A DNA stretch of 64,000 bases from Fimicolochytrium jonesii (Eukaryota): the NCBI RefSeq assembly GCF_025526975.1, contig NW_026515671.1:310001-374000 (forward strand), given 5' to 3'. Below, in pieces: positions 1-31,539 of this stretch. Below the pieces are notes generated by a model. The model saw only the letters and a list, made by a program, of their open reading frames with translations, was not told where the DNA came from and did no database searches. The position numbers and the translations under genes are program-made. How positions within the stretch are numbered: the first letter of the stretch is position 1; each line of letters opens with the position of its first letter.

Positions 1-2922
1 TGGATTTGGCGGATTCTGACTTGCTGCAGGCGAGAAAGTGGGCCATCTTGGTGAGGCAACAGTTGACGTTCAGGATGGAGTCGTACCCGTCCACGGGAGG
101 CAGACCGGTGATAAAGTCCAGGGACCAAGATCCCCAAGGGCGGGTAGGGATACTGTTGGGCTGGAGTAGGCCGTATGGTTTGTGTCGACTGGATTTCGCT
201 TGGCTACAGGTATCGCAGGACTTGACGTAGGCCTTGACGAAGCGCCACTGGCTGGGCCACCAGTAGTTGCGGGAGGCGAGTTCAAGCGTCTTGGACATCC
301 CAAAGTGGCCGGCTAGGGGAGTATCGTGCATGTCGTGGCAGACTTCGGCTCGGAGCTCGTTGGTGGGGACATAGACCAGGTTATCGTGCAGCAGGATCCC
401 ATCTTCATCTGAGAACCGCTTGATACGATCTCGGGTTTCCTCAGTTCGTTGGGCGAGGGGTATCTTGAGCTTTTCGCGAATGGTCTTAGCGAGGGGATCA
501 GAGGCCTGGGCGGCCTTAATCTTGTCAAGCAGCGTGGTATCCATGGGTGTGAGGTAGGCAGCCGCGAGTCGAAGGCGTTCGGGAGTCAAAATTGTGGTTG
601 CCTGGGAGCGGAACGCTTCTTCCCCCTCTTTTAGCTCATGTTCGGAGCGTCGGGAGAGGGCATCGGCTTGGTGCTGCTGGGAACCGGGGCGATAGGTAAT
701 GACAAAGTCAAAATCCGAGAAGAATATCGACCAGCGGGCTTGGCGGCGGTTCAGGGTGCGGGTGGTCATGAAGTACAGAAGGTTTTTGTGGTCGGAGTAA
801 ACGGTGATCTTGTGACGGGCGCCAATGAGATGGTGGCGCCACTGGGCAAAGGAGTCTTGGATGGCCAGAAGTTCCTTATCGTAGATCTCGTAGTTGATCT
901 CTTCGGCCGTGAATTTGCGAGAGTGGAAGGCCACGGGGTGGAGCTGATTGTCCTGGTCAGGTTGGAGGAGAACTGCGCCAAGAGCGAAGTCGGAGGCGTC
1001 AGTTTCGACGACGAAGGGCTTCTCTGGGTCAGGGTGAGCAAGGATGGGGGCGTTGGTGAATGCTTTCTTCAGGTTCTCGAAGGCGGTGTTTGCGGCGGGT
1101 GTCCAGGCGTACGGGATGTCTTTCCGGGTCAGGGCTGTGAGCGGGGTAGCGATCTTGGAATAACCTTGGATGAATCGGCGATAGAAGTTGGCAAAGCCGA
1201 GGAAGCGCTGGACGCCTTTGACATTCTTGGGAGGTTCCCAATCCGTGATGGCAGCGATCTTCTTGGGGTCCATCTGGATGCCTCTCTTGGAGATGATGAA
1301 GCCTAGGACCTCAACGGATTCGCGGTTGAATTCGCACTTCTCTGGTTTGGTGTACAACCCATGCTGTCGGAGGCGGGACAAGACTTCGCGGACATGTTTG
1401 GGGTGATCTTCGGGGTTCTTGGAGAATATCAGGATATCGTCGAGGTAGACGACAACAAACACATCGAGAATGTCGCGGAAGATGTCGTTCATCAGGTACT
1501 GGAAGACGCCAGGAGCATTGCTGAGTCCACGGGGCATGACATTGTATTTGAATAGGCCGTAGCGGCAGCGGAAGGCGGTCTTCCATTCATCGCCCGGGCG
1601 CATGCGTAAGAGGTTATAAGCGCCGCGGAGGTCGATCTTGGTGAGACGACGGCGCCACGCAAACAATCCATGATACCGTTGATCAGGGGCAGGGGGTAGC
1701 GATTCTTCACCGTGATGCTGTTCAGGCCTCGATAATCGACGCAGAGGCGGAGAGAACTGTCCTTTTTCTTCACGAATAAGACTGGCGCACCGGCAGGGGA
1801 CTTTGAGGGTTTGATGAATCCTTTGGCGAGGTTTTCTTCGAGGTATTCGCAGAGTGCCTTCATTTCTGGTTCGCTGAGGCTGTAGATTGGGCCGAAAGGT
1901 GGCTGCTTGCCTTCTTCCAGATCGATTGGACAGTCGTAGGGCCGGTGCTCGGGGAGAGTGTCAGCATTTCTCTTTTCGAAAACGTCGGCGAAGTCTCGAT
2001 ACTCGGGGGGCAGGAAGTCTTTGATGTCTTTCTCGGGTGTCGGGGGGTTACTGGGGCTAGGCGAGGCCGGGAGATCGGGTTTCGCAGGGTTGGCGTAGGC
2101 GACGAAGACCTGGTCATGCCTTGCTGCGACCTGGAAGGCTGGGACGGAGATGAACGAGACTCGGAGCGGCGTGGGAGCCGGTTCTGGGGTGCTGGAGCGA
2201 GATACCTTGGGTACTGGAATCGACCATGTTTCGTCGACGGGGACTTCATCCTGGGGGATGCGGATCAAGGGCTCAGGGGTTCTGGCGGGTGCTGGGCTCG
2301 GGGGTGCTGGAGAGTTGTCCCAATTCGCGAATTCATGGTACAGACAGTCGCAACGGAAACCGACCGAAAGGTTCTTGAAGTCAAGGTTAATGTCGTGGAG
2401 GCGGAGCCAGGGGAGACCAAGGAGGATTGGAGCATGGGGTGATTTGGTGACATGGAAGACGAGTTCTTCGAAGTGGTCGTCGACCCACATGCCTACTGGT
2501 TGGGGGTGATGGGTGATTGGCCCAGCAGAGCTGGGTTGACCGTCAACGAGTTCGATCGTCAGTGGACGCTGATGCGGGACTAGGGCGATGCGGTGTTTGC
2601 GGGCAAAGTCTCTGTCGATGAAGCAGGACAGGGCACCATTGTCGATCATGGCTGAGGTAGGTATCGGGGCGCGGCTGGATGATACCATGATGGTAACGGG
2701 GTAGTTGAAGGGTTCGACGGGACCCAGCGCAAGCATGGCGCGGGGGTTAATTTCGGAGTTTTTGACATGGGCAGCGGCTAGGAGGGTTGTGTCGGCTATA
2801 ACGGAGTCGGGAACCAGGGGGGTGGCCTCTCCCGTTGCAGGAGCTGCGAGGTTAGGAGGCCCGGGGCGGTGTGTGTTGTCCAGTCGCTGGGGCTTTACTG
2901 CGGCTGGACTTTGGGAAAACCC
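1..2922 (-). pseudogene. pol: Gypsy pol (PR-RT-RNase H-integrase) of copy 1, frameshifted
   Basis: Protease-like [14 protein letters not shown] motifs [11 protein letters not shown] and YLDDIL, RNase H ETDASDFALG, integrase HDTPLAGHFG/CDTC. One-base deletion near 1643. Confidence 0.9.
2878..2922 (-). promoter_or_regulatory. -1 programmed ribosomal frameshift signal (gag/pol), copy 1
   Basis: G_GGU_UUU heptamer in the gag frame (2916-2922), 6-nt spacer, then hairpin GUCCAGCCGC...GCGACUGGAC. The -1 frame is open into the pol ORF. Confidence 0.8.
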
Positions 2923-3893
2923 TGTTCGGTGGAGGGTTCTTTGATGTCGACGTTGGCGGCACGGGTGGTGGTCTTGTTCTTGACGGGGCAGACTTTTGCA
3001 ATGTGCCCCGCGCCACCGCAGTAAAGGCAGAGGTTGTTGGAAATGCGGCGTTGGCGTTCCTGAGGGCTCAGAGGGCCGCGGGGACGAGCGGCGTCAATCT
3101 GCATAGGCTCGCTGTGGTCGACAGTGGTGGTAGTAGTAAACGAGGTATGGGGAACCGGGAAGGTCTGGCGGCTTCTGTTTCGCTCCAGGCGGCGCTCAAA
3201 CAGCCGGTTATCGCACTGGATAGCCTGCTCCATCACCACATCAATGGTGGCCGCAGGGGGCATTGTGAGCATCAGGTCTTTGACGTCTTCTTTGAGGCCA
3301 CGGCGGAAGGTAGCAATCAGGGCCTGGTCGTTCCAGGAGACATCGCATTGTAGCTGGCGGAACTCAGCGACGTACTCGGTTGCTGCACGGGTTTGGCGAA
3401 GGTTCTGGAGCTTGTTTTCAGAGGTGCGGACCCTGTCGCTGTCTCCGAAGACCGATTGCATCTGACTGATAAAACTATCGAAGTCCTGAAGGCTGTGATC
3501 TTGGCGTTCGACTAGGGGCGCCATCCAGGCTTGCGCAGTGCCTGTGAGGTAGGTGCCAATAGTTTGGATCTGGATGATGTCGCTGGGGTAGCGGTCGGGC
3601 TGGAGAGCAAACATCAACCGGATGTTGTTCAACCACCCACGGAATTTGCTGCGGGTACCATCAAACTTCTTGGGCGAGCTGATTCTTGGCTCCAGAGCAG
3701 GGTTGGTGACTTGGGGACGGGTGTACGTATCGGCTTGAACCTGGGCGGCGATGCTCTGGGCAGCTTGTGCGTCGGCTTGGGCTTGCGCTAGGTTGGCCTG
3801 CAAGTTGGCGTTTTGGCTTTGCAAGGCGGCGATGGCTTGGCACATATCGTTCCATTGCTTGGGAGTGAAAGGTACGGATTCGGGTTGGGACAT
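2895..3893 (-). CDS. gag: Gypsy Gag (capsid plus CCHC zinc knuckle), 332 aa
   Basis: [24 protein letters not shown] and FRRGL capsid motifs; [14 protein letters not shown] knuckle. Confidence 0.92.
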
Positions 3894-3962
3894 GGCGAAA
3901 AAGGTTTGTCGGATGCAGGGCTGGACGGGTTCTGAACTTCGCAGTGTTGGAGCAGATCAAAC

Positions 3963-4455
3963 TGTTATGATCTCGACAAGGGAGGCGGGAAGCGAAGTAG
4001 AGAAGTCAGGGCGAGAGTGATAGGCGACAAGAGATTGTATTGGCGAAACAAGAAACAAGGACTAGAACAGGAGATGAGAAGAACTGGTGTTGATCTGCTG
4101 GGGAGGAAGGGAATGGACGAAGAGAGGCCGGCTATTTATAGATAGGCAACCCAGCAGATCAGAGAACAACAACAACAAGAGGGGACTGGGGGGGCGCCAG
4201 CTATGCTCCTAGAGCGTGCGTGGCGAGCGTAGAGAGCATTGCTACAGCTGCTGGCTATGGGGAAGTAGTGGGGGATGTGAAGAAGCCGAGGGGGGATTGG
4301 CGAAATGAGAGGAGAGAGGGGGAGTGGCATTGACATTGACATTGACACTGACATTGACACTGACATTGACATTGACATTGGCGTTTGACATTTGGCGCTT
4401 GACATTGGCGCCTGTCAGTAGGTAAGCTTATGGTATGGGCGCGTCGTCCATAACA
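3963..4455 (-). repeat. 5' LTR of chromovirus A copy 1
   Basis: TGTTA...TAACA ends; matches 22516-23007 and 27973-28463. TATAAATA on the minus strand near 4133-4140; TGACA(T/C) hexamer array. Confidence 0.95.
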
Positions 4456-7125: not shown

Positions 7126-7306
7126 TGTTGTGTTATTACTGGGAAGTAGCCGATGAAGAGTAGAACCATTACTGGTCTTAATGTATTACTTGTTGTATGT
7201 CTATATACTCCGGACTCTGGCGTCGGGGTCTTTGTTTCTCTGACCGTGACCAGACTGCTTACGCGATGACAGCAACTGACAGGATAGTTCGCGTCTCTGC
7301 ACAACA
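7126..7306 (-). repeat. 3' LTR of Copia C1 (181 bp)
   Basis: TGTTGTG...CACAACA ends. Shares GAAGTAGCCGATGAAGAGTAGAACCA and CGTCTCTGCACAACA with the C2 LTRs. Confidence 0.88.
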
Positions 7307-7420
7307 CTCCCCCGACTCGAGCTGTCCAAAAGTCAGCCTGTCCAACTCCCGCTCTCAACTCCATTCCAATCAACAACACACTCTCTCTTTCCGACACCCA
7401 AATCCAACCAATCCATCAAG

Positions 7421-7867
7421 ATGCCGAACGGTGGTCCAACTTGCCCGATCTGTATGGTCAACCCTGCCATCTACAACGGGCCATGTGGGCACCTCTTTTG
7501 CCGTACGTGCATCGTCCAGGAGATCCTCTCTCATTTGCACGCCCCACGCTGTGGCGTTTGTTGGTGAGTGGTGAGAGGAGGTAATTCAACTGATAAACGT
7601 GTATTGATTGCCTCTCTTAGAGCCCCGTGGCCAGTTTACTTAACCCGGGACCGGCACAATCGTCAGTGCTGCATGTGCGGCACTAATCCCATCTCGTGTC
7701 GCATGGTGACCTCGTGTGGCAACTGCACCATATGCAACGGATGCTCCATTTATCTTGTTCGGTGTCACCCGCCGAATCAAGTTCGGTGTCCGTCGTGTCA
7801 TGTAGCTTTTGACGCTCCGCTGCTCACTTGGCTCCGAAGAGCCATTATTCAACAATACGGCGTGTAG
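7421..7867 (+). pseudogene. Antisense two-exon tandem RING-finger gene inside Copia C1 (exons 7421-7563 and 7621-7867); one nonsense codon at the splice junction
   Basis: Exon 1 CPIC-x10-CGHLFCRTC-x13-CGVC (C3HC4). Intron GTGAGT...CTTAG, 57 nt. Exon 2 CCMC-x12-CGNCTICNGC-x13-CPSC. Confidence 0.75.
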
Positions 7868-9013
7868 TGTAGACTTCACTGTCGTAGCCCACATAGTTCC
7901 CGTAAATAAACAAACACCGGTCTCAGAAGCGCTTTCGTTTGGATGTCCGCTATCATTTCTTTTGTTGAGATATACTGGAAATCTAGCTTGCGTTCAGCTA
8001 CAAGTTCCCGAATAAAGTGGTGTCGAACGTCAACGTGCTTCGTCCGCTGATGATCCACGGGATTGTTCGCAAGTTTGATGGCGGCTTGGTTATCTTTGTA
8101 AATCAGTATGGGCTTGTCGGATGCGCCCAGGATTTCCTGTTTCATCCGAGAAAGCCACAGCGCTTCTTTGGCTGCTTCTCCGAGCGCTACATATTCCGCT
8201 TCCGCCGTAGATACTGTAACAGCCGCTTGCCGTTGTGACTTCCAGGATATTGCTCCCCCGTTTAAGGTGAACATGTACCCTGAAACCGAACGCCCAGTCT
8301 CTTTGCATTTTGCGAACTCCGCATCACTGTATCCCCGGAGTTTGTTATCTGACTCGTTATTGTATTGTAGGATAAGCTCTTCCGTTTTGGCAACGTAACT
8401 GAAAACCCGCTTAGCCGCCTTCATATGTGTCTGTGACGGCTTAGCCAGAAACTGGGATAACTTAGATATCGCGAAAGCGATATCAGGGCGAGTTCCAATC
8501 ATAAGGTACATCAATGACCCTATCATCGATTGATACGTTGCAACGTCTGCCGGTTTCTCATCCGCAGCTATAATCTCAAGCTTCACATTGGGATCCAGCG
8601 GCGTGTCGTGCGGTTGCATCTGCTCCAACCCGAACTTCCGTAGTATATCACTGATGTAATTCTGTTGTCCAATAGTGAGGGTTCGTTGGATGCGATTTTG
8701 TCTGACTTCTATTCCGAGGAGGTAAGAGAGCTCCCCCATGTCTTCCATTTCGAAGCGTAATTTCAACCCTTCTTTAATTGCTTCCCGTTCCACTTTGCTC
8801 GTTGAAAGAATTGTCAAATCATCAACGTAGACGGCGATGATGATAAAACCTCAGCCAATGCGCTTTATGTAAAGAGCATTGTCTAGTTTGGAAACGTTGA
8901 AGCCTTTCTCTCGTAGGTAAGCGTCCAACACCTTATTCCACAACCGAGGTGACTGTTTCAGTCCGTACAGAGAACGTTTGAGTTTAACCGTTGTCCCCTC
9001 TGGTAGGCGAAGG

Positions 9014-12019: not shown

Positions 12020-13885
12020 CGACCCGGAGCAAGATTTATAGTGTTCACGGATGCATCGGTTTTTGCAATAGGCGGATGGCTTGCCCAGCCGGCGAATCCA
12101 TCAGAGCATTACCCATCACCGTTGCCTACCTCAGTAAACGGATTTAAGAATCTGCCACCGTTAAAGCCGATAGCTTTCTTTGGGCGGAAGATGCAACCCG
12201 CTGAAACACGTTACCCCTTGCACAAACAAGAGCTATTAGCTCTGGTTAGCATATGCAAGGCAAACAGGCATTACTTGCAGGATCGGACAAATGACCGCCC
12301 GTTTCGCGCGTTCACCGATCACGCTAGTTTGGTCTGGCTGCAGACACAGCCCTTCCTGAGCCATTGCCAAGCATGATGGGTTGAATTCCTGCAACAATCC
12401 AAATTTGATATTGAATATCAACCTGGTCGTTGGAACACCGTCGCGGATGTGTTGAGTCGTAATCCTTATTACGCTCCTTGCTGCGCCGAGTGTAACAAGC
12501 AAGTGGAAATCGCTGCGGCCTTGGGGATGTCCGTCGAGTATATTCCTTTGGGGAATGTTACGCTTGAGGATTGGATACGAACCTTGGAGGCTGATGAGTA
12601 CTTCGCTTTGCGGAAAGAGGCGTTGTCACAGCCAAAGGAACGACAGTCAACATTCGATCGCCGTTTTTCGATCGATGACTATGGTTGTTTACTGTACCAC
12701 GATAAGTTCTATGTGCCAGCTGCTTTACGAGGAACTGTATTGCAGGCGTACCACAACTCGTTGCTATCTGGCTCGCATACGGGGGTACAAGGTACATTGG
12801 GCAAACTCCTACGTGAGTTTTACTGGCCCGATATGGACGCAGATGTGAGAGGGTACATCAAGACTTGTGGGTCTTGCCAAAGGTTCAAGTCGCTGAACAG
12901 TAAGTGCGTTGGCTTACTTCGTTCGCTCCCAGTTCCCGACCGACGTTGGCACACAATGGGTATGGACCCTGTCTGGATGCCAATAACACGGTCATTGGGG
13001 GGGAAGGTGCAGAGTGATGCGTTTTACGACAGTTTTATTGTCTTCATCGACTATCTGTCAGGGTGCGCATACTTTATACCTGCGGCATCCACGATAACTG
13101 CCGAGGAGTTGGCCCATCTTTACTTCCGTGAAATATGGCGCCATACAGGTACTGCAGCTCTGATCGTCGGAGATCGAGATCCCCGCTACCTGGCAGATTT
13201 CTGGAAGGTGTTTCAATCGTTGTTGGGCTCAAAGCAGAGCTTGAGCACGGCACGACCCCAACAGATGGACGGAAAGGTCGAACGGTGTATCTCTATCTTG
13301 AAGAAGATGATTAAACCGTACCTTAATGTAACGGGAGACGATTGGGTTGACAAACTACCGATGTTGGAGTTTGCCTACAACCGTACGCAGAACAGCACTG
13401 GATACTGCCCTTTCGAGGTTGATTTGGGTAGAATTCCGCAGGCGCCGATGCATTGGCAAGTTGACACAAAGGTGTTGCAACGTATGGACGATATCTCGAT
13501 CCCATTCTTGCATAAGTCACAATGTGAGCTCATCAAACAGATGGAGAAGCGTGCTGAGGCATACCGATCCATTGAACTCATAGTGCAGCAGAAACTGCAG
13601 GAAGCCCAGGACAAACAAGCGAAGTATCACGATCGTGGACGTCGTGTACAGAGCTTTCGTCCAGGAGATAAAGTCCTGTTGAACAGCGATGGGATAACGA
13701 TCCCTGCTTTCAATAAGAAGCCGCTCAAGTTTAGACAGAGCTGGCTAGGACCCTTCATTGTGAAGAGGGAAGGACCACACCCGGAAACATACGAGTTAGA
13801 GCTGCCAGCTTTGATGGGCGCTTTATACCCGGTCTTCCATACGGATATCTTTAAGCCTTGGCACAAGCCGACTTCAGATCCGCAC
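12020..13885 (+). mobile_element. Degenerate Ty3/Gypsy fragment E (RNase H plus integrase)
   Basis: FTDASVFAIGG, YPLHKQELLAL, HTG...CGSCQ, GDRDPRY, DGKVER, WLGPF (GPY/F module). Confidence 0.9.
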
Positions 13886-13889
13886 GCTG

Positions 13890-15555
13890 CAGGGGGGGAT
13901 TCTGAGCTCCCTGACGCATCTCCCAACCCACAATCTGACACTGATCAATGGGCAGAGGCCCCAGAGGACCTAGACGACCAGGAAGACCAGGAAGATGACG
14001 ACTTGGTGCACTACGGACGCATCACATGCTCCCAGAGCACTCGAATACGCCAAAGCAACCTTGCCTATGCCCTGGCCACCGAAGTACTGCACACAGAGCC
14101 CAAAACCCTCAAGCAAGCTCTAAACTCCAACGACTCAGCCAAGTGGAAGGAAGCCATGGAGGCTGAATACGTATCCCTTGTCAAGAACGGCACCTGGGAG
14201 CTCTGTCCGGCACCCAAAGATAGCAACCTTGTTGGATGCAAGTGGATTCACAAGATCAAGACGAATGCTGAAGGCAGTATCGAACGCTACCAGGCCAGAC
14301 TATCCGCCCAAGGCTTCTCACAAGAATAGGGAGTTGACTAGAACGAAACATTCGCACCAGTGGCCAAGTTCGACACCATTCGGCTACTCTTGTTGTGGGG
14401 AGCAGCACAGGACCTCGAAATGGACCAAATGGACGTGTCCACCGCATTCCTGAACCCGACACTCAGTGAGGAGATCTATATGAAGCAGCCACCGGGCTAC
14501 ATCAAGCCAGGAGAAGAGCATCTTGTGCTTAAACTCAAGAAGACACTCTATGGTCTCAAACAAGCCCCCAGGGAGTGGTACATCGAAATCCATGGCACTC
14601 TCGTTGAGAAAGGCTTCACTCGTCTTGATTCAGACCATTGCGTCTATATCAGGTTCTTTGAGGGCTGGCTACTCATCCTGATCCTCTATATGGACGATCT
14701 CATACTTATGAGGCACAAGAGACTCGATCTTGACAGCTTCAAGGCCAAGGAACTTCAAAAGGCGTACGAAATGCGTGATCTAGGTGCCCTGCACTACTTC
14801 CTGGGTCTTTTAGTCCCTCGAGACCGAGCCAAACGACTCCTGACGCTCAACCAGACTGGGTACATCGAAAAATGTCTTGAAACATACGGGATGACCGATT
14901 GCAAGCCTGTATCAACTCCCAGCGTCGTGGGAAGCCCTCTCACCAAGGAAATGACACCTCAAACGCCTGAAGAGACTGCAGAGATGCAGAACAAGCCCTA
15001 TCGAGCGATTGTAGGCAGTCTGATCTCTGCAATGTTCGGCACAAGACCAGACATAGCCCAAGCAGTTGGAGCTGTGAGCTAGTTCTTAGCCAATCCAGGC
15101 AAAGGACATTGGAAAGCTGCCAAACGCATTCTGGCGTATCTCAGGACGACCAAACACTTCCAACTTCGACTGGGAGCCGTCCAAGAAACCCCCAAACTCG
15201 TGGGATGGTCAGACTCAGACTGAGGAGGCTGCCCAGACACTCGAAGATCGACCACAGGATACCTCTTCACCTTCTGCGGTCCAGTAAGCTGGAAATCACG
15301 CACACAACGCACTACAGCACTCCCCTCCACCGAAGGCGAATACATGGCACTCACAGACGCCTGTAAAGAAGCCATGTGGCTCAGATCTCTACTCAGAGAA
15401 CTGAGCACGCACCAAGACCAGACAGGACTCGTTCAAGGCCCCACAGTCATCTGGGAAGACAACCAAGGAGCTATGACACTCGCCACAAACCCAGTTCACC
15501 ATGCACGAACCAAGCACATCGACATCTGAAACCACGTCATTCGTGAACAATTGAT
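13890..15555 (+). mobile_element. Degenerate Ty1/Copia fragment F (RT plus RNase H)
   Basis: EPKTLKQA, WKEAM, GCKW, QMDVSTAFLN, LYGLKQAPREW, YMDD, WEDNQGA, RTKHIDI; several stops. Confidence 0.92.
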
Positions 15556-17640: not shown

Positions 17641-19137
17641 CTTGACGGCTTGAGGACGCGATTGAAAGCAGATGCAGCCGACGATGACTTCCTCGATGTC
17701 GTACATCAAATGAAGCAGAACCGATTCGATCTGGCTCCTATGATCACCACCGACACGAAACTTACCACGCAGGCAGGAATTGCCAAAGTTATCAAGCACG
17801 CTTCACTCTCCAGAAGAGACATTGCTCAAGGAATGTTGGAGATCCTTTGTAACGCTGTCATAAAGTCTGGCACCGATGTAGTCAAAAGATGCACGATTTA
17901 TCGCACACCAGTGCTATTGGAGACCAGGGCTATTTGGAAGTCAAATAGCACCAACTTTGCGATGCACCTATGCGCTGGAATATCACACCAGTGCTATTAC
18001 AGGACCAGCAGTACGTCGTTGTATGTACATCTGTTTCGAAAGCACAGGACTGGGCAATTCAATTCAAGAACATTACCAAAGCCAATCGCTTGAGGGCAGC
18101 CTGGATTTGGGCACATCTCCCGTCGTCACCCGGCCTTGCTAAGTTACGTCCCAGATCTTGAGTTCAGCATTGCACTCAGCACCCCATCCTCCGACACCCT
18201 GTCTGACATGGGTGATGATCACTACCCTATCCTCACTCCAATGGAGGCAGACGAGGCCCTCTCACAGTTCCCCGCAGGCCAGGAAGAGCCAGAGTCTGAA
18301 GTCTACAACAGAGGCCGCCGCAATTCCTTTGACCGGCGTCAGGAAGAGTGGGACTACACTCAGAGAATGTCGAAGGAGGGTGAGGACCAGGACAATAAGC
18401 CCAGTGCCGTGCCTTGCAAACCAGGCCCTGACGATACCATTGCCATCACTTTGCCTTTGAAGAGGAAGCTGATTCCTGAGAATCTTGCGCCAAGATTTTG
18501 ACCGTTGTCCGAGGAGGAGATACAGAGGATTAATGAGGCAGACAAAAACCTGAACACCGTTCGCTCTACAAAGACATGGGTCAAAAAGTGGAACCAGTAC
18601 AAGGAAGAGTGCCACTTGACTAAGAAGATGGCACTGTCAACGTTGCTCAATTGAACAAGGTGAGAACCCACAACTGCTTCCGCACAGTCCATTTGTTTGA
18701 CCTCAAAGCTGATATCTACTTCACGCAAACCATCTAGGACTTGGAGGCCTTCATCATTCAGGTCAAAATGGACAACGGGGAAGGGTTTTGTGACTCCAGC
18801 TTGGATACTGGCTTTGGTAGTCTTGGCCGCTATTTCAAACTCAAAGGGGAGGAAAACAACCGGGTTGTCAATATTCAGTCTGACACTGAGTTCCGTGGTG
18901 CACGTACTATTCTCAACGTGAGGATGGCCGACCTACATAAGATGGGCAATGGTGGGACCACGCAGCCTCTGACCTCAGCCTTGAAGAATTTCGCACTATG
19001 CTGGGTTCAGCCTTCTGCTCAGTGGACACGCCGGAAGGCCTTCTCCACTGCGTTTACCTCTACCTGTCAGTCTTCCTTGTTGAGCGTGGAGGAGAGGCAA
19101 GCCGCATGGAGGTTACAGATCTGAAGCTGAAGATGAT

Positions 19138-19333
19138 TCTTGTGGTTATAGGAAGTAGCCGATGAAGAGTAGAACCATTACTGTATTACTATTAGTTATA
19201 TCTATTACATTCTTAGGTGTCGGGCACTTCACTCCTAGCCGTCTGCGCAGACTGCTGAAGCGAAGGCTTACTAATGACGGCGTTTGACAGGATTAGGGAT
19301 AGGGTTAGGGATAGCTCACGTCTCTGCACAACA
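19138..19333 (-). repeat. 3' LTR of Copia C2
   Basis: Near-identical direct repeat of 29916-30111. Confidence 0.95.
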
Positions 19334-19489
19334 CTCCCCCGACGCGAAATGCCCAAACAACCCTAAAATCCGGCTGTCCACATCGCCGACGACTGCATAC
19401 CCCTCTTCTTCTTCCATATCCGACCCCATCCAACCGGTCCAGATTCATTTCCCCTCTCATTGGGCAACTTCGACCACATCCGCTCTTGT

Positions 19490-22400
19490 TTACGGCTCTC
19501 TTTGTCTAAATCCGCATAGTGCCCGGAGGTGAACAAAGGCTGGTTTCGGGAGGGCTTTCGTCTGGATGTCGGCGACCATTTCTTTTGTTGATATATACTG
19601 AATATCTACTTTGTTTTCAGCCACGAGTTCCCGAATGAAATGGTGTCAAAGGTCGATGTGTTTTGTCCTCTGATGATCTACCGGATTATTGGCGAGTTTT
19701 ATGGCGGCTTGGTTGTCCTCATAGATCAGGACGGGCTGGGGCTCGTCAGGGACCCCCAGGATTTCCCTTTTCAACCGAGAGAGTCAGATCGCTTCCTTAG
19801 CCGCCTCTCCAAGCGCCACATATTCTGCTTCCGCTGTGGATACCGTCATGTTTTTCTGCCGTTGGGATTTCCAGGATAAAGCTCCCCCATTCAAGGTGAA
19901 CGTATAGCCCGAAACCGACCGTCTCGTCTCTTCACACTTCGCGAAATCCGCATCACTGTATGCCCGCAGCTCGTTATCTGATTCGCCATATTGCAGGACA
20001 AGCGTTTTGGTCTTGGCAATATAACTGAAAACCCGCTTGACGGCTTTCATATGAGTTTGCGAGGGTTTGGCTAAGTACTGAGAGTGTTTGGATACGGCGA
20101 ATGCGATGTCTGGTCGGGTTCCAACCAGTAAGTACATCAATGACCCGATCATTGACTGGTACGTTTTGACGTCTGCCGGCTTCTCCTCCTCCGCAGTCAT
20201 AACTTCTAGTTTCACATTTGGGTCCAGCGGAGTGTCGTGCGGTTGCATCTGTTCCAGCCCGAATTTTCGCAGGATGTCGCTTATATACTTCTGCTGTCCA
20301 ATAGTGAGGGTCCGCTGGGTGCGATTTCGTCTCACTTCTATTCCTAGGAGGTGGGAGAGCTCCCCCATGTCCTCCATTTCGAAGCGCAATTTCAGCTCTT
20401 CTTTAATAGCGTCCCGTTCGGATTTACTGGTTGAAAGGATGGTCAAATCATCGACGTAGACGGCAATGATAATGAAACCTCGTCCAATGCGCTTTATATA
20501 AAGAGCATAGTCCAGTTTTGACACATTGAAGCCCTTCTCCCGGAGGTAAGCGTCCAAGACCTTATTCCATAACCGGGGCGACTGTTTAAGGCCGTATAGG
20601 GAACGTTTGAGTTGAACAACGGTACCGTCGGGCAGGCGAAGGTATATTACGGTGTCGAGGTTCCCATTCAGGAAGGCGGTTTTCACGTCCATCTGATGGA
20701 TTTCTAGGTCGTGTGCCGCTGCAATGGCCAACAACATCCGCAACGTGTTGAATTTTACGACGGGCGCAAACGTTTCATGATAATCTATCCCCTCTCTCTG
20801 CGTGAAACCCCTTGCGACTAGACGAGCTTTGAACTTCTTTATGGTGTTGTCAGGGTTGCGCTTTACTTTGAATACCCACTTAGAATCTACTGTGTGTCCA
20901 GAGTGGTTTTGACCGGGATTTTGGGCGCTCTGGTCATCGGGTTTTGGACCAGAATTCTGGGCGTCCCCAGAAATTCGGTGGTCAACCCATCGACCGGGTG
21001 CTTCCCAGGTTCCATTCTTTGCATGGGATGCAAGTTCCTCTTCCATAGCGGCTTGCCATTTGCGTGCGTATGGAGATTTCATAGCGGCTTTCAGTGTGGA
21101 GGGTTCGTCTGTGTCTACCGTCGCTGCTAAGAGCTCTGCGCCGGGTCCTGATCCGGGTTCAGCTCCAAGGTACTGACTCCCGTCGTCTTCGACCCCCAGA
21201 AATTCCGACAACGCTACTGCGTCCTTCACAAATTCATAGGGTTCCCAAGTGGGGTCGTCAAACCCTACCCACTTAACAAGGTATTCCTTCTCCCCCAAAT
21301 CTCCATCCCCACGCCACAAAAGCATCTTTTCAACGGCGTATTCAGCATCTGAGTTTGATTCAGGGATGGATTCGCTACGACTGTTGTTTTCTTTGAAAGT
21401 GACGTCCCGGGATTCAAAGATCTCCAACGTTTCTTCATCAATGAGTCGGTATGTGCCATGTTTGGTGGCATGGTAGCCAAGAAGCCGCAACGGGCCTAGC
21501 GCCCATGCCGAAAGCTTACTTCTCCTCTTTTGTTTAGGGATGTGAAGGAAGGCTTCACTCCACGGTGTCCGCAAATTCGAGATATCTGCGGGTCGTCCGT
21601 ACCATCTATGGTATGGGGTCGTTCCGGTTGCACTGGCCGGCGTCCGCTGTCTAAGATAATTGACCAATACAGCCAATTCATTCCATAGATTTTCTGGGAC
21701 ATTACTAATCCACATTATGGCCCGAATTTGGTCCATAATAGTCCGGTTGAAGCGCTCCGCAATCCCGTTTTGTTGGGAAGAGTATGGCTGCGTCGGAACC
21801 AGCGAGATCCCTGCTTCCTTTAATTCATCCAGCATCTCGGTCGACATGTATTCCCCCCCGTTGTCGCAGCGCAACTCTTTGATCTTCCCATTACAATGGC
21901 GCTCTGCAAACGCTTTAAACTCTTTCCACTTCTGGTGCACCTCGCTCTTATTTTTCAAGATGTAGATTACTGACCATCTCGAAAACTCGTCAATAAACGT
22001 GAGGATGTACCGCTTTCCATTAAAAGATTTCGTTTTAGGACCGACGTCCAATACATCTGAGTGGATCCTGTCCAATAATTTGGTTGCAGGCCGGGGGTTT
22101 TGCCCAGTGAAGGGCTTCCGTGTTTGTTTTCCTTTTTTACAGCCCACACAGAGTGGGGGTTCGGCGTTTTTGGTGTTGAGTTCGAAGTTGTATTCTAAAC
22201 TCGCAGCTTGAAGCGCTTTGGATCTGATGTGTCCAAAACGCTGGTGCCATAGTTTATTGACGTTGCGGTCTTGGGCTTTCCCTCAAGTGCCAGAATAAAC
22301 GCTTCCGGCTCTGCTTCAATATACCCTTTCAGGAACGGAAGTCGTCCATTATGGGTCACTCGCAACACGGATGTCCCATCTCGTCTGATTTCCGCATGTC

Positions 22401-22515
22401 CTTTTCGGAGTTGGATGTCGTAGCCCTCATCAACCAAAGGTGCCGTACTGCATAGATTTTGGCGCGCATTGGGCACATAGAGCACGTTTCAAAGGGTAAT
22501 GTGTTTTTCCGGCTC
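19490..22515 (-). pseudogene. pol: Copia C2 pol (integrase, chromodomain, RT, RNase H)
   Basis: IHSDV, RCDNGGEY, QQNGIAERFNRT, chromodomain ~21200-21343, QMDVKTAFLNG, YVDD, YSDADFA. Premature stops at 19784 and 22489. Confidence 0.92.
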
Positions 22516-23007
22516 TGTTATGATCTCGACGACGGAGGCGGAAGCGAAGTAGAGAAGCCAGGGTGAGAGTGATAGGCGACAAGAGATTGTATTGGCGAAA
22601 CAAGAAACAAGGACTAGAACAGGAGATGAGAAGAACTGGTGTTGATCTGCTGGGGAGGAAGGGAATGGACGAAGAGAGGCCGGCTATTTATAGATAGGCA
22701 ACCCAGCAGATCAGAGAACAACAACCACAAGAGGGGACTGGGGGGGCGCCAGCTATGCTCCTAGAGCGTGCGTGGCGAGCGTAGAGAGCATTGCTCCAGC
22801 TGCTGGCTATGGGGAAGTAGTGGGGGGTGTGGAGAAGCCGAGGGGGGATTGGCGAAATGAGAGGAGAGAGGGGGAGTGGCATTGACATTGACATTGACAC
22901 TGACATTGACACTGACATTGACATTGACATTGGCGTTTGACATTTGGCGGTTGACATTGGCGGCTGTCAGTAGGTAAGCTTATGGTATGGGCGCGTCGTC
23001 CATAACA
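22516..23007 (-). repeat. 3' LTR of chromovirus A copy 2
   Basis: TGTTA...TAACA, adjacent PPT AAGAGAGGGGTGA on the minus strand. Confidence 0.95.
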
Positions 23008-26000
23008 TCACCCCTCTCTTGAGCGGCGGCGGCGGCGGCGTCGAGTTTGATGTGGCCGCACAGGAGGTGCTACGGGGACAGAGGAAGGCTTGTTGGGGTA
23101 CGCGCTGTGGTAGTCCTGGAGGAGTGCGTCGGTATGGGTGAGGTGTTCCACGGGCTCCCAGGTGTTCTCAGAGTCAGGCCAGCCCTGCCATTTGACCAAG
23201 TACTGAAGGCGACGACGATGGATGCGAGAGTCAAGGATGGCTTTGACAACCCACTCTTCTTGACCCTCAACGGTCTCTGGGGGCGCGGGTTCGGGTTCGT
23301 GTCGTTCGGGGATGGTGAAGCGGGGTTCGAGGAGCGAGACATGGAAGACATCGTGGATTTTGTACGTAGGCGGGAGCTTGAGCCGGTAGGCGACGGGATT
23401 GATTTTTTCAACGATGGGGAATGGCCCAATCTTGCGATGGTCGAGTTTCTGAGAGGGCTGGGTTGTCTGGAGGTCTTTGCGGAGGAGCCAGACGTGGTCG
23501 CCAGGCTTGAAGTGCGGTCCAGGAATTCGTTTGGCGTCGGCGTAGCGCTTCATTTGATCTTGGGCTTCCTTGAGCTCGAGGGCGAGCTGTTCATGGACTT
23601 CCCTGATTTGTTTAGCGCGGGCTTCAGCGGCAGGGTTGACGGATTCGGAGGTAGCAGAGGCCGCGAAACTGAAGCGGGGGTGGAGACCCTTGTTGGCGTA
23701 GAAGGGGGTGGTCTGGGAGGCGGACTGATGGGTGTTGTTGTAGGCGAACTCGGCGGACGACAGAAGCTGTTTCCAGTTGTCCTGTTGGTGGTTGCAAAAG
23801 CATCGGAGATACTGCTCCAGGATCTGGTTAGTGCGTTCCGTCTGGCCATCGCTCTGGGGGTGGAAGGCCGAGGAGAGGTTGGCTTTCGCCCCAAGGAGTT
23901 CGAGAAGTCGACGCCAGAAACCGGGACTTAAACTGGGGTCCTCGGTCAGAGATGAAAACGTTGGGGAGGCCGTGGAGACGGATGATGTTGTGGAAGACTA
24001 GGTCGGCGGTGGATTTGGCGGATTCTGACTTGCTGCAGGCGAGAAAGTGGGCCATCTTGGTGAGGCAACAGTTGACGTTCAGGATGGAGTCGTACCCGTC
24101 CACGGGAGGCAGACCGGTGATAAAGTCCAGGGACCAAGATCCCCAAGGGCGGGTAGGGATACTGTTGGGCTGGAGTAGGCCGTATGGTTTGTGTCGACTG
24201 GATTTCGCTTGGCTACAGGTATCGCAGGACTTGACGTAGGCCTTGACGAAGCGCCACTGGCTGGGCCACCAGTAGTTGCGGGAGGCGAGTTCAAGCGTCT
24301 TGGACATCCCAAAGTGGCCGGCTAGGGGAGTATCGTGCATGTCGTGGCAGACTTCGGCTCGGAGCTCGTTGGTGGGGACATAGACCAGGTTATCGTGCAG
24401 CAGGATCCCATCTTCATCTGAGAACCGCTTGATACGATCTCGGGTTTCCTCAGTTCGTTGGGCGAGGGGTATCTTGAGCTTTTCGCGAATGGTCTTAGCG
24501 AGGGGATCAGAGGCCTGGGCGGCCTTAATCTTGTCAAGCAGCGTGGTATCCATGGGTGTGAGGTAGGCAGCCGCGAGTCGAAGGCGTTCGGGAGTCAAAA
24601 TTGTGGTTGCCTGGGAGCGGAACGCTTCTTCCCCCTCTTTTAGCTCATGTTCGGAGCGTCGGGAGAGGGCATCGGCTTGGTGCTGCTGGGAACCGGGGCG
24701 ATAGGTAATGACAAAGTCAAAATCCGAGAAGAATATCGACCAGCGGGCTTGGCGGCGGTTCAGGGTGCGGGTGGTCATGAAGTACAGAAGGTTTTGTGGT
24801 CGGAGTAAACGGTGATCTTGTGACGGGCGCCAATGAGATGGTGGCGCCACTGGGCAAAGGAGTCTTGGATGGCCAGAAGTTCCTTATCGTAGATCTCGTA
24901 GTTGATCTCTTCGGCCGTGAATTTGCGAGAGTGGAAGGCCACGGGGTGGAGCTGATTGTCCTGGTCAGGTTGGAGGAGAACTGCGCCAAGAGCGAAGTCG
25001 GAGGCGTCAGTTTCGACGACGAAGGGCTTCTCTGGGTCAGGGTGAGCAAGGATGGGGGCGTTGGTGAATGCTTTCTTCAGGTTCTCGAAGGCGGTGTTTG
25101 CGGCGGGTGTCCAGGCGTACGGGATGTCTTTCCGGGTCAGGGCTGTGAGCGGGGTAGCGATCTTGGAATAACCTTGGATGAATCGGCGATAGAAGTTGGC
25201 AAAGCCGAGGAAGCGCTGGACGCCTTTGACATTCTTGGGAGGTTCCCAATCCGTGATGGCAGCGATCTTCTTGGGGTCCATCTGGATGCCTCTCTTGGAG
25301 ATGATGAAGCCTAGGACCTCAACGGATTCGCGGTTGAATTCGCACTTCTCTGGTTTGGTGTACAACCCATGCTGTCGGAGGCGGGACAAGACTTCGCGGA
25401 CATGTTTGGGGTGATCTTCGGGGTTCTTGGAGAATATCAGGATATCGTCGAGGTAGACGACAACAAACACATCGAGAATGTCGCGGAAGATGTCGTTCAT
25501 CAGGTACTGGAAGACGCCAGGAGCATTGCTGAGTCCACGGGGCATGACATTGTATTTGAATAGGCCGTAGCGGCAGCGGAAGGCGGTCTTCCATTCATCG
25601 CCCGGGGCGCATGCGTAAGAGGTTATAAGCGCCGCGGAGGTCGATCTTGGTGAGACGACGGCGCCACGCAAACAATCCATGATACCGTTGATCAGGGGCA
25701 GGGGGGTAGCGATTCTTCACCGTGATGCTGTTCAGGCCTCGATAATCGACGCAGAGGCGGAGAGAACTGTCCTTTTTCTTCACGAATAAGACTGGCGCAC
25801 CGGCAGGGGACTTTGAGGGTTTGATGAATCCTTTGGCGAGGTTTTCTTCGAGGTATTCGCAGAGTGCCTTCATTTCTGGTTCGCTGAGGCTGTAGATTGG
25901 GCCGAAAGGTGGCTGCTTGCCTTCTTCCAGATCGATTGGACAGTCGTAGGGCCGGTGCTCGGGGAGAGTGTCAGCATTTCTCTTTTCGAAAACGTCGGCG

Positions 26001-26932
26001 AAGTCTCGATACTCGGGGGGCAGGAAGTCTTTGATGTCTTTCTCGGGTGTCGGGGGGTTACTGGGGCTAGGCGAGGCCGGGAGATCGGGTTTCGCAGGGT
26101 TGGCGTAGGCGACGAAGACCTGGTCATGCCTTGCTGCGACCTGGAAGGCTGGGACGGAGATGAACGAGACTCGGAGCGGCGTGGGAGCCGGTTCTGGGGT
26201 GCTGGAGCGAGATACCTTGGGTACTGGAATCGACCATGTTTCGTCGACGGGGACTTCATCCTGGGGGATGCGGATCAAGGGCTCAGGGGTTCTGGCGGGT
26301 GCTGGGCTCGGGGGTGCTGGAGAGTTGTCCCAATTCGCGAATTCATGGTACAGACAGTCGCAACGGAAACCGACCAAAAGGTTCTTGAAGTCAAGGTTAA
26401 TGTCGTGGAGGCGGAGCCAGGGGAGACCAAGGAGGATTGGAGCATGGGGTGATTTGGTGACATGGAAGACGAGTTCTTCGAAGTGGTCGTCGACCCACAT
26501 GCCTACTGGTTGGGGGTGATGGGTGATTGGCCCAGCAGAGCTGGGTTGACCGTCAACGAGTTCGATCGTCAGTGGACGCTGATGCGGGACTAGGGCGATG
26601 CGGTGTTTGCGGGCAAAGTCTCTGTCGATGAAGCAGGACAGGGCACCATTGTCGATCATGGCTGAGGTAGGTATCGGGGCGCGGCTGGATGATACCATGA
26701 TGGTAACGGGGTAGTTGAAGGGTTCGACGGGACCCAGCGCAAGCATGGCGCGGGGGTTAATTTCGGAGTTTTTGACATGGGCAGCGGCTAGGAGGGTTGT
26801 GTCGGCTATAACGGAGTCGGGAACCAGGGGGGTGGCCTCTCCCGTTGCAGGAGCTGCGAGGTTAGGAGGCCCGGGGCGGTGTGTGTTGTCCAGTCGCTGG
26901 GGCTTTACTGCGGCTGGACTTTGGGAAAACCC
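23008..26932 (-). pseudogene. pol: Gypsy pol (PR-RT-RH-IN-chromodomain) of copy 2, several 1-bp frameshifts
   Basis: ORF pieces 25595-26746, 24775-25680, 23828-24850, 23008-23553 carry the standard motifs. Most frameshifts lie in homopolymers. Confidence 0.9.
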
Positions 26933-27903
26933 TGTTCGGTGGAGGGTTCTTTGATGTCGACGTTGGCGGCACGGGTGGTGGTCTTGTTCTTGACGGGGCA
27001 GACTTTTGCAATGTGCCCCGCGCCACCGCAGTAAAGGCAGAGGTTGTTGGAAATGCGGCGTTGGCGTTCCTGAGGGCTCAGAGGGCCGCGGGGACGAGCG
27101 GCGTCAATCTGCATAGGCTCGCTGTGGTCGACAGTGGTGGTAGTAGTAAACGAGGTATGGGGAACCGGGAAGGTCTGGCGGCTTCTGTTTCGCTCCAGGC
27201 GGCGCTCAAACAGCCGGTTATCGCACTGGATAGCCTGCTCCATCACCACATCAATGGTGGCCGCAGGGGGCATTGTGAGCATCAGGTCTTTGACGTCTTC
27301 TTTGAGGCCACGGCGGAAGGTAGCAATCAGGGCCTGGTCGTTCCAGGAGACATCGCATTGTAGCTGGCGGAACTCAGCGACGTACTCGGTTGCTGCACGG
27401 GTTTGGCGAAGGTTCTGGAGCTTGTTTTCAGAGGTGCGGACCCTGTCGCTGTCTCCGAAGACCGATTGCATCTGACTGATAAAACTATCGAAGTCATGAA
27501 GGCTGTGATCTTGGCGTTCGACTAGGGGCGCCATCCAGGCTTGCGCAGTGCCTGTGAGGTAGGTGCCAATAGTTTGGATCTGGATGATGTCGCTGGGGTA
27601 GCGGTCGGGCTGGAGAGCAAACATCAACCGGATGTTGTTCAACCACCCACGGAATTTGCTGCGGGTACCATCAAACTTCTTGGGCGAGCTGATTCTTGGC
27701 TCCAGAGCAGGGTTGGTGACTTGGGGACGGGTGTACGTATCGGCTTGAACCTGGGCGGCGATGCTCTGGGCAGCTTGTGCGTCGGCTTGGGCTTGCGCTA
27801 GGTTGGCCTGCAAGTTGGCGTTTTGGCTTTGCAAGGCGGCGATGGCTTGGCACATATCGTTCCATTGCTTGGGAGTGAAAGGTACGGATTCGGGTTGGGA
27901 CAT
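26905..27903 (-). CDS. gag: Gypsy Gag, copy 2
   Basis: Identical to 2895-3893 apart from one Q/H change in the translation. Confidence 0.92.
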   Translation of the reverse strand: MSQPESVPFTPKQWNDMCQAIAALQSQNANLQANLAQAQADAQAAQSIAAQVQADTYTRPQVTNPALEPRISSPKKFDGTRSKFRGWLNNIRLMFALQPDRYPSDIIQIQTIGTYLTGTAQAWMAPLVERQDHSLHDFDSFISQMQSVFGDSDRVRTSENKLQNLRQTRAATEYVAEFRQLQCDVSWNDQALIATFRRGLKEDVKDLMLTMPPAATIDVVMEQAIQCDNRLFERRLERNRSRQTFPVPHTSFTTTTTVDHSEPMQIDAARPRGPLSPQERQRRISNNLCLYCGGAGHIAKVCPVKNKTTTRAANVDIKEPSTEQGFPKVQPQ

Positions 27904-27972
27904 GGCGAAAAAGGTTTGTCGGATGCAGGGCTGGACGGGTTCTGAACTTCGCAGTGTTGGAGCAGATCAAAC

Positions 27973-28463
27973 TGTTATGATCTCGACAAGGGAGGCGGAA
28001 GCGAAGTAGAGAAGTCAGGGCGAGAGTGATAGGCGACAAGAGATTGTATTGGCGAAACAAGAAACAAGGACTAGAACAGGAGATGAGAAGAACTGGTGTT
28101 GATCTGCTGGGGAGGAAGGGAATGGACGAAGAGAGGCCGGCTATTTATAGATAGGCAACCCAGCAGATCAGAGAACAACAACAACAAGAGGGGACTGGGG
28201 GGGCGCCAGCTATGCTCCTAGAGCGTGCGTGGCGAGCGTAGAGAGCATTGCTCCAGCTGCTGGCTATGGGGAAGTAGTGGGGGTGTGGAGAAGCCGAGGG
28301 GGGATTGGCGAAATGAGAGGAGAGAGGGGGAGTGGCATTGACATTGACATTGACACTGACATTGACACTGACATTGACATTGACATTGGCGTTTGACATT
28401 TGGCGGTTGACATTGGCGGCTGTCAGTAGGTAAGCTTATGGTATGGGCGCGTCGTCCATAACA
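27973..28463 (-). repeat. 5' LTR of chromovirus A copy 2
   Basis: Direct repeat of 22516-23007, followed by TSD GGCTC. Confidence 0.95.
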
Positions 28464-29833
28464 GGCTCTTCGTTGTTGAAGACCCGGACGGTGCCGGCTT
28501 TCTGGGCTTTAATGGTCTGACTGTTGGCGACTGTAATGATGACCGGCGCAATGGGATGAAGCTCTTCAAACATGAACTCGTCCTTAACCACATGATGGGT
28601 TGCACACGAGTGCAGGGCAATACTATGGTCCGCTCCCCGGTCCGTAGCCAAAACAAGGTTCGCCTCAGCGTCTGATTTCTCCTTCCGCGTCTCTTTTCCA
28701 AGTAGCTCCTTCGCCGCCTTCAGTTTCGGGCATGTGTTTACCCAATGACCATGTTCCCCACATAATTTGCATGGAAACCGGTCAAATTTGGATCCACTTC
28801 CTTGGGCACCTCCTCCTCGTCCACGGCCTTTACTCTCTCCATTTCCGCCACGGCTAGGGTTATCCTCCGTCTTCTTCAGCAAGTCTGACAACTGTTTCGC
28901 TTCGGCATTGCTGGCCTCCACTGATTTAGGGCGAAATGAGCGTTGGGTTGACGAGTCTAGCGCCCCCATCATCTGTTCCTGACGGGTAGCCGCTTCCTGC
29001 ATGGCATCTAAATTCGGCAACTCCTTACTGATGATTGCTGAGTAAATAGATCGTTTTAACCCTTTGAGGTATCTATGTTCGACATCCTGTTTTGATGTAT
29101 CCGAGATCTGCATCACTAAGCGGTTGAATGCCACGTTATATGCAATGACAGAGTGGGTCTGTTTCAACCCATCCAATTTATCCCGAACCATCGTTCCATA
29201 GGCGGGTGGGATAAACCGCTTCTCCAGTGTCGTTCTTAATTCCATCCAGGTTCTGGGAATGTTTCGAGAGAGGTTCCGCCACCACAGATCTGCGGTTGCC
29301 GTAAATTTACTAGTAACCAAAGCGATTTCTATGTGCGGGGGTAAATCCACCGTATTGATGAAGTTTTGAACCTTGCTGACAAACTCATAAAGAGTTTGCG
29401 GTTTTCCCATATCCCCGTCATATTTCGGGATCTCCCTCAATAACTGATTCGTTATAAAGGAGACACTTGTCTTGGATGCAGTGCTCTGGGTGGGTGACGG
29501 ATATCTCTTTGGCGGTTGATTAATGTCGTCCGGAAGAACATCCTCCTTTAATCCCAACGCTACCCTTTCCCTTTCCTGCGCTGCTGTAGTCTGCATCTCT
29601 AGGATAAGATTCAGGAGCGTATTCTGCTGCTCCCGCTGTGCTCTGAGCTCTTCACGCTGTGCGCGAAGCTCTTCCAGCATTTTCAGTTTATACTCGCGCT
29701 CGTTCATCTCCTCAACACCTTCCCACTTCGACTGCTCTTCAAGCTCCTCTGTTTTATACGCCGACACCAGTCTCACTGGAGGGACTGCTCCGGTGCGTGC
29801 GGGGGTTTGGATGGGGCTCAGCTCGATGTTCAT
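28464..29833 (-). CDS. gag: Copia C2 Gag-protease N-terminal part, cut by the insertion
   Basis: Capsid motifs ADLWW...TWMEL...LKQTHSVIAY...YLKGL; knuckle CKLCGEHGHWVNTC; Copia-type protease motif degraded to LHSCATHH. Confidence 0.85.
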
Positions 29834-29903
29834 GGCGGTTTGTCGTGTTGGTTCAACGAGTTCGCGATACGATCCTTACTGCTTCGTTCCGGCTTCGCAG
29901 GCA

Positions 29904-29915
29904 GGGCTCATAACC
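29904..29915 (-). promoter_or_regulatory. Primer-binding site GGTTATGAGCCC (initiator tRNA-Met anticodon-arm type)
   Basis: Immediately follows the 5' LTR; same type as the Ty5/copia half-tRNA PBS. Confidence 0.85.
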
Positions 29916-30111
29916 TCTTGTGGTTATAGAAAGTAGCCGATGAAGAGTAGAACCATCACTGTATTACTATTAATTATATCTATTACATTCTTAGGTGTCG
30001 GGCACTTCACTCCTAGCCGTCTGCGCAGACTGCTGATGCGACTGCTTACTAATGACGGCGTTTGACAGGATTAGGGATAGGGTTAGGGATAGCTCGCGTC
30101 TCTGCACAACA
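29916..30111 (-). repeat. 5' LTR of Copia C2
   Basis: Direct repeat of 19138-19333, flanked by the PBS and the ATGAT TSD. Confidence 0.95.
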
Positions 30112-31131: not shown

Positions 31132-31159
31132 GGCAGACGGCAGACGGCAGACGGCAGAC
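31132..31159 (+). repeat. 7-bp tandem repeat (GGCAGAC)4
   Basis: Read directly from the sequence. Confidence 0.9.
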
Positions 31160-31539
31160 GCTGGTCAATCTCCTCAATGCTCCCATTATGTGAGTAGGTG
31201 CCTGGGACTGTTGCACCGTCCGGGAGCTCCATATTACCGTAAGCGGGCTGAATACAAGTCTACTATTCAACTATGAGCGAAACACTCACGTAACGGCCAC
31301 GGGCCAGCCTTGTTACCTCTCAGAGTGATATCAACCCTGACCCAAGCCCTAACCCTACTCTAACGTTAATTGTGGGAATAGCAATTTCTCGTGTGGCGAT
31401 AGCGTTTCCCAATGATATTCTTACAAAAGTATCGCTGAATGATATCTACAGAGTACCATACAACCTGCCGTCTCCCTTAGAAGGCTTCTTGACAGGACCT
31501 GCCGGAAATATTGGCCTTTCTACCCTAACCCTAACGTAC

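Follow-up and report, generated by a model that had tools for sequence, protein, structure and literature searches.

A putative spliced antisense RING gene between pol and the 3′ LTR of a decayed Copia element in the chytrid Fimicolochytrium jonesii

We analyzed a 64,000-nt stretch of the F. jonesii genome (RefSeq assembly GCF_025526975.1, contig NW_026515671.1, positions 310,001 to 374,000; hereafter, the window), in which a transposon cluster occupies approximately the first 32 kb and is followed by host genes. Between pol and the 3′ LTR of a minus-strand Copia element, designated C1, we found a plus-strand gene that starts with an ATG at 7421, consists of a 47-codon exon 1 and an exon 2, and ends with a TAG at 7867, leaving 8 nt to the stop of the convergent pol. 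Based on sequence comparisons and profile searches, we consider it somewhat probable that this is a spliced antisense accessory gene borne by the C1 family, encoding a RING E3-type product, and that it is now dead in this copy.

The 3′ LTR of C1 (7126-7306, minus strand, 181 nt) has the ends TGTTGTG...CACAACA and contains a TATA-like TATATA at 7202-7207 and a plus-strand ATG at 7266. It adjoins a polypurine tract (PPT; 7307-7314, minus strand), and the same tract occurs in a second element, C2, at 19334. The 3′ part of pol (7876-9012, minus strand), comprising the end of the reverse transcriptase (RT) and the RNase H, was assigned by Pfam RVT_2, alignment with C2, and a tblastn map. The pol stop is located at 7876-7878, and 569 nt separate it from the PPT. 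This series of RT (RVT_2, Copia type), RNase H, PPT, and LTR places C1 among the Ty1/Copia elements. At approximately 9013, C1 is interrupted by Gypsy-type sequence and its 5′ part lies outside the window; an integrase before the RT, two LTRs, a PBS, and a target duplication are present in the sister C2.

The initial annotation had placed the ATG at 7421, an intron segment of 57 nt, the end of exon 2 at 7867, and an 8-nt gap to the pol stop, and all of these coordinates were confirmed. The antisense frame contains 129 codons (47 + 1 + 81), and the exons and intron occupy 447 of the 569 nt between the PPT and the pol stop. The gene thus lies antisense between pol and the 3′ LTR, in the aORF-3R position. 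Codon use favored the RING frame weakly (152 of 2000 null draws).

Exon 1 (7421-7563, 47 codons plus two bases) encodes a complete C3HC4 RING finger, as had been proposed. It scored above the gathering cut-offs of Pfam PF00097 and PF13445 (zf-C3HC4, 25.4 versus 21 bits; zf-RING_UBOX, 28.5 versus 25.2 bits), and together with the spacing C-x2-C...C-x-H-x2-C-x2-C...C-x2-C, these matches assign unit 1 to the RING-HC type. The best PDB match was the TRAF6 RING (E = 3.7e-5), followed by the EHV-1 RING, RNF123, and RNF4. These matches are generic and imply no orthology.

The exons are separated by a predicted intron of 57 nt (7564-7620) whose GTGAGT donor lies two bases past the final cysteine codon of exon 1; it also has a branch-like ACTGAT at 7589 and a TAG acceptor. 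Its GC content is 41%, versus 55-57% in the exons, and it contains an in-frame stop. The donor and acceptor signals were those described in the initial annotation, and a frame-keeping intron with such signals appeared at this place in 27 of 20000 shuffles, under criteria chosen post hoc. Candidate host introns in the window, delimited from reading frames alone, measure 59-82 nt, similar to the 7564-7620 segment; examples among the 14 listed are 59, 65, and 74 nt long with 42-48% GC. These signals suggest that 7564-7620 is spliced out.

Exon 2 (7621-7867), with a frame open from 7622, encodes an eight-cysteine RING-like unit and a C-terminal helix. The cysteines follow the pattern C-x2-C-x12-C-x2-C-x2-C-x2-C-x14-C-x2-C, which fits an eight-ligand RING spacing either as an all-cysteine variant or with Asn at the His position. 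The second RING-like unit of the initial annotation therefore stands as regards its eight cysteines in RING spacing, but the last spacer is 14 residues, not 13, and no Pfam match was obtained at E ≤ 10. The best PDB sequence match was the cIAP2 RING at E = 0.26. Against a six-sequence RING profile, unit 2 scored 9.8 bits versus 33.4 for exon 1, and 23 of 1000 shuffles reached the unit 2 score. The check by HMMER and structure modeling that had been suggested gave a profile match for exon 1; for unit 2, the unguided model reached a pLDDT of 42 and the RING-guided model 64. Foldseek rows for the guided model were mostly RING, none at E ≤ 0.001, and are biased by the guide. Taken together, the data weakly support the probable identity of unit 2 as a second RING. 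The two units are 16 residues apart, with no detectable relation or duplication signal between them. No substrate-binding domain was evident in the 129-residue product, and NCBIfam and Rfam returned chance-level rows only.

Across the 64 kb in six frames, the strict C3HC4 pattern occurred once (7442) and a looser pattern, drawn up after exon 2 had been seen, twice (7442 and 7667); the two loose matches are adjacent and in one frame. In three Markov simulations of the 572-nt segment, the strict pattern appeared 2, 0, and 2 times per 20000, the loose pattern 0, 0, and 1 times per 20000, and the eight in-frame cysteines of exon 2 in 0 of 20000 each time.

In the spliced frame, the junction codon TG/A is a stop, as the initial annotation had stated. 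Without splicing, the frame would likewise be closed, by a stop at 7565-7567. Arg is the usual residue after the last RING cysteine. Of the eight stops listed in the three Copia pol genes of the window, three lie at Arg positions (8853, which is CGA in C2; 15527; and 19648). Decay of the CGA-to-TGA kind is real here, because C1 pol has a TGA at 8851-8853 where C2 reads CGA; in the pol alignment, C2 also has a TGA where C1 has CGA. A decayed Arg codon at the splice junction is thus a reasonable reading of the sequence. The CpG-to-TpG loss of CGA that had been proposed was upheld in part, by these TGAs at Arg positions. CpG is not depleted overall, the observed/expected ratio in C1 pol being 1.18, and the case for the CpG route consequently comes down to the three Arg-position stops. 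High 6mA is reported for F. jonesii in the accessible part of PMC11258239, and no record of 5mC in this species was found in the accessible portions of the literature searched. RNA folding at the junction was no better than in shuffles (z = −0.41). Neither stop read-through nor selenocysteine insertion nor A-to-I editing has any support at the junction in this sequence, and these explanations were dropped.

The pol gene of C1 carries the premature TGA as its only stop in 378 codons, plus five private amino acid changes at conserved sites. The copy is lightly decayed, and its pol is dead. Because C1 pol is only lightly decayed, one stop in the 129 codons of the antisense frame fits a death together with the copy. 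The RING frame would then have been intact until about the time of C1 decay, or would have entered shortly before.

Upstream of exon 1, the ATG-free, pyrimidine-rich leader (7307-7420, plus strand) is a candidate 5′ UTR or initiator. On the element strand it is the purine-rich 3′ UTR of C1 (63% purine, versus 62-65% in C2). No ATG occurs between 7266 and 7421. The ATG at 7266 in the LTR is out of frame with exon 1, and its frame would overlap exon 1 if transcription started upstream of 7266. Downstream, an AATAAA at 7905-7910, 38 nt past the stop and antisense to the last codons of pol, is a weak candidate for the poly(A) signal of the antisense gene. This hexamer occurs twice in the 1145 nt of C1 pol and once in the 2793 nt of C2 pol, with none at the matching place in C2.

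C2 is a full-length Copia element (19138-30111, minus strand) with LTRs 96% alike and the target duplication ATGAT; a Gypsy element is nested in it at 22515-28463. Over 374 codons, C1 and C2 share 85% amino acid identity, with dS = 1.32 and dN = 0.086. In a tree of 20 rows, 18 of them picked among 120 listed matches, C1 and C2 grouped at 100/100 support, and a clade with a Powellomyces protein adjoined them at 98/93. These comparisons indicate sister families, each long under selection. The description of C2 as a sibling thus holds in the sense of a sister Copia; given the dS of 1.3, we count it as another family, not as a C1 copy. Only 156 nt separate the C2 pol stop from the LTR, and RING is absent there. 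The statement that C2 lacks the antisense ORF was borne out, with no significant likeness to an antisense-gene remnant (410 of 1000 shuffles were as good). Of the similar leader ascribed to C2, the PPT is common to both elements, but past that tract the two leaders resemble each other only modestly (21 of 1000 shuffles).

The C1 LTR shares its end and a 33-nt block (7142-7174, 19151-19183, and 29931-29961) with the C2 LTRs. Although dS in pol is 1.3, C1 and C2 do not differ at any position of the block, and it is likely a functional cis element near the LTR end; a 31-nt form of the block had 0 matches in viral contigs. We also observed a chromodomain-like stretch in C2 between the integrase and RT (residues ~317-355 of the frame 19787-22282, minus strand), with a Pfam E of 0.001, below the cut-off. 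Many of the nearest C2 relatives have a chromodomain after the integrase, and P0019 and P0034 are above the Pfam cut-off. A chromodomain in C1 can only be deduced from C2, because the integrase region of C1 is missing. The C2 gag (28439-29875, minus strand) scored above the cut-off for Retrotrans_gag and Ty3_capsid, as did those of the relatives P0054 and P0073, indicating a Gypsy-like capsid profile in a Copia element that also bears a chromodomain-like stretch.

Several further observations concern the transposon cluster. A tyrosine-recombinase-like frame (30037-31197, plus strand; Phage_integrase E = 8e-6) lies directly beyond the C2 5′ LTR. Together with the segment at ~18100-19137, it raises the possibility that a Crypton- or DIRS-like element was the target of the C2 insertion. 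A Gypsy-type element occurs twice in the window (1-4455 and 24010-28463). The two copies are 99.75% identical; the five single-base gaps between them, located within or next to base runs, are possibly assembly errors. A third Copia fragment (12377-15553, plus strand) is more decayed, with five stops and no 3′ end, and is fused in-frame to a Gypsy-type integrase zinc finger.

We searched for relatives, donors, and further copies. The unspliced frame, with X at the stop, gave one candidate in a word-index search of proteins of 81-259 aa and none at E ≤ 10. HMMER against 1.84 billion representatives returned one generic match, a Deltex-type protein with three RINGs. The annotated proteins of the closest named taxa of the host were included in the searched protein collection. 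A metagenome scan with exon 2 yielded seven loci, none with a Copia pol: six RBR-ligase-like ORFs and one unrelated, matched via a short cysteine peptide. In viral contigs, exon 2 matched four loci (three RBR-ligase-like and one short chance match) and pol none; the pol alignment found one distant locus, near which a weak exon 1 match falls within a separate sense-strand ORF. Prokaryote genome contigs contained 67 contaminating Copia loci, all distant, with no C1-family copy, and exon 2 had no match in phage records. The full RING pattern was found downstream of the RNase H in 0 of 36 distant Copia loci, these being the loci, among 68, with at least 600 nt past the RNase H; a RING split by an intron would escape this screen. 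Among the sequences searched, the RING gene is therefore known from one C1 copy, with no second C1-family copy or protein relative.

Two host genes in the window were also inspected. A PA-domain RING-H2 gene (56387-58420, plus strand) has its RING split by an intron of ~82 nt; this RING is of a different type, and the gene is not the source of the antisense RING. The host TRAPPC13 (47830-49326, minus strand) is a single open frame. It matches the F. jonesii record at 96%, identical save for a 21-residue gap, and the records from Geranomyces, Powellomyces, Thoreauomyces, and Spizellomyces at 65-68%, placing the host among the Spizellomycetales. The 21 residues missing from the F. jonesii record align in Geranomyces, which suggests a miscalled intron in that record.

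How the gene came to lie in C1 can be explained in more than one way. A small RING gene from the host, a virus, or another transposon might have been captured backwards in a single event, never serving the element, an account that we regard as possible, if on balance unlikely; the intron would have stayed because the capture was backwards. Such a one-off passenger would accord with the single copy, the absence from C2 and the 36 distant Copia loci, and the broken frame, and the leader shared by C1 and C2 may be merely the purine-rich 3′ UTR of the element. Cases of transduction by LTR elements are on record, with ORFs of this sort confined to one or a few copies (PMC7264820). A viral donor is conceivable because the nearest named host species retains a giant-virus capsid gene remnant, according to the accessible part of PMC13533422. 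However, no donor was found in either protein collection or, with exon 2 as the query, in viral contigs, searches from which a short or unannotated donor could escape. Furthermore, the capture must span exactly ATG to stop without flanking host DNA, and transduced sequences are usually sense-oriented (PMC7264820). A gene of the element's own is favored in that it takes up the slot from its ATG until only 8 nt remain before the pol stop, foreign flanking sequence being absent, in that its leader contains no ATG, in that an AATAAA, a weak signal, follows the stop where C2 has none, and in that protein searches revealed no apparent donor gene. Counting against it are the one copy, the absence from C2, the broken frame, the weak codon signal, and the upstream ATG at 7266.

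Two other readings appear far less probable. The gene might still be alive, either through a later acceptor (a CAG ending at 7634) that would yield a single-RING protein of ~64 residues, or because the junction base is an assembly error, which we consider very improbable. The 7634 acceptor does open the frame for 16 more codons, and the five single-base gaps between the near-identical repeats in the window resemble errors of long-read assembly. But the first AG past the branch-like site is the one at 7620, the 64-residue form offers no account of the eight in-frame cysteines in exon 2, the observed gaps are indels, not substitutions, and C1 pol is itself dead. Slightest of all, in our estimate, is the chance that an antisense RNA overlapping the 3′ end of pol damps the element via double-stranded RNA, the protein being secondary, or that unit 2 is another kind of zinc finger. 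A transcript ending past the AATAAA at 7905 would indeed overlap pol, such damping has been proposed for LTR-element antisense RNAs (PMC7264820), and the RING identity of unit 2 is unproven (no Pfam match, 23 of 1000 shuffles, pLDDT 42). This account leaves the complete, above-cut-off RING and the frame-keeping intron unexplained, and any transcript from the region is hypothetical.

If the gene is an accessory gene of the C1 family, as we favor, a promoter in the 3′ LTR or the leader would produce a plus-strand RNA starting after 7266, from which the host spliceosome would remove 7564-7620. An antisense intron is not spliced from genomic RNA. The intron would survive retrotransposition because the gene is antisense to the genomic RNA, which reads the opposite strand. 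Through its first RING, the product of 129 residues would engage a host E2, acting as a RING E3 or an E2-binding decoy. Many RING-HC ligases need a dimer as the active form; unit 2 might be an in-chain partner RING, one chain replacing the dimer, or a substrate grip. As for the target, we can only guess at a restriction or silencing factor of the host or, for copy control, the Gag/Pol of the element itself. In its most ambitious form, this proposal describes a chytrid chromodomain-type Copia family with its own spliced antisense single-chain double-RING ligase that destroys or re-routes a host silencing factor. We regard this as rather doubtful; if true, a fungal retrotransposon would be equipped with an accessory E3 in the manner of retroviruses.

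RING-HC E3 ligases (TRAF6, RNF4, cIAP2, and the herpesvirus ICP0 type) resemble the C1 gene in the RING of exon 1, whereas the C1 gene has two RING-like units in one 129-residue chain without a substrate domain. HTLV-1 HBZ is a spliced antisense gene driven from the 3′ LTR and encodes a bZIP protein of a true retrovirus. The HTLV antisense promoter sits in the 3′ LTR (PMC7264820). Burro, a giant Gypsy element of planarians, is also an LTR element with motifs of the ubiquitin-pathway type (AIR1, a RING Zn-finger; MATH/TRAF; BIR; and SUMO-like), for which meddling with the host was proposed; the accessible part of PMC6431247 describes a Gypsy element of up to 30 kb, with the motifs mostly in the polyprotein rather than in a small antisense spliced gene. 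The diatom Copia CoDi-A carries a chromodomain after the integrase, placed as in C2 and its nearest relatives, but belongs to another host, and the accessible part of PMC2774666 mentions no antisense gene.

The plant aORF-3R genes share the slot and orientation of the C1 gene and have no source gene outside the elements; for the C1 gene, none turned up in the protein collections searched. Among fungi, the antisense gene brtn was reportedly described by Zhao et al. in 2011. In the accessible parts of PMC7264820 and PMC8365987, brtn is an additional gene of Boty/BcGypsy1 in Botrytis cinerea and Sclerotinia, oriented antisense in the interval from pol to the 3′ LTR and present family-wide, and no RING is mentioned. 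In position and orientation it thus matches the C1 gene, both being carried by fungal LTR elements, but Boty is a Ty3/Gypsy family in an ascomycete, whereas C1 is a single Copia copy in a chytrid. The plant cases, as given in the accessible parts of PMC7264820 and PMC11963269, include Grande gene23, for which an own antisense promoter was shown, RIRE2, Retand TRP28, and PvRetro13; antisense genes of this slot occur throughout the families Retand, Grande, RIRE2, and Boty. Retand differs from C1 in being a Gypsy element with a pol-LTR region of 2.9-6.6 kb, and the domains named there for plant aORF-3R products are TRP28 or SMC, none of them RING. In plants at least, Copia elements are reported to acquire domains poorly, and no domain gain was seen when 4,811 plant Copia consensuses were screened, according to the accessible part of PMC9289625. 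In the largely open-access literature searched, no paper turned up that describes RING genes within Copia elements or chytrid retrotransposons; the accessible part of PMC3248453 contains neither RING nor antisense, and those of PMC5776459 and PMC5408684 contain no RING. The initial annotation knew of no such arrangement in fungal Copia elements; antisense genes occupying this slot have been described in the fungal Gypsy element Boty. What the antisense extra genes of LTR elements do is an open question, partly as the known ones are mostly without a recognizable domain; the RING domain of the C1 gene makes a direct biochemical test possible, by E2-dependent ubiquitination or substrate capture. 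In our analysis, the layout is already known from the plant antisense ORFs and Botrytis brtn, and the RING cargo in a Copia element appears to be the new part. If family-wide, it would represent a fungal retrotransposon with a virus-like tool against its host, hidden from ORF annotation by its intron and orientation.
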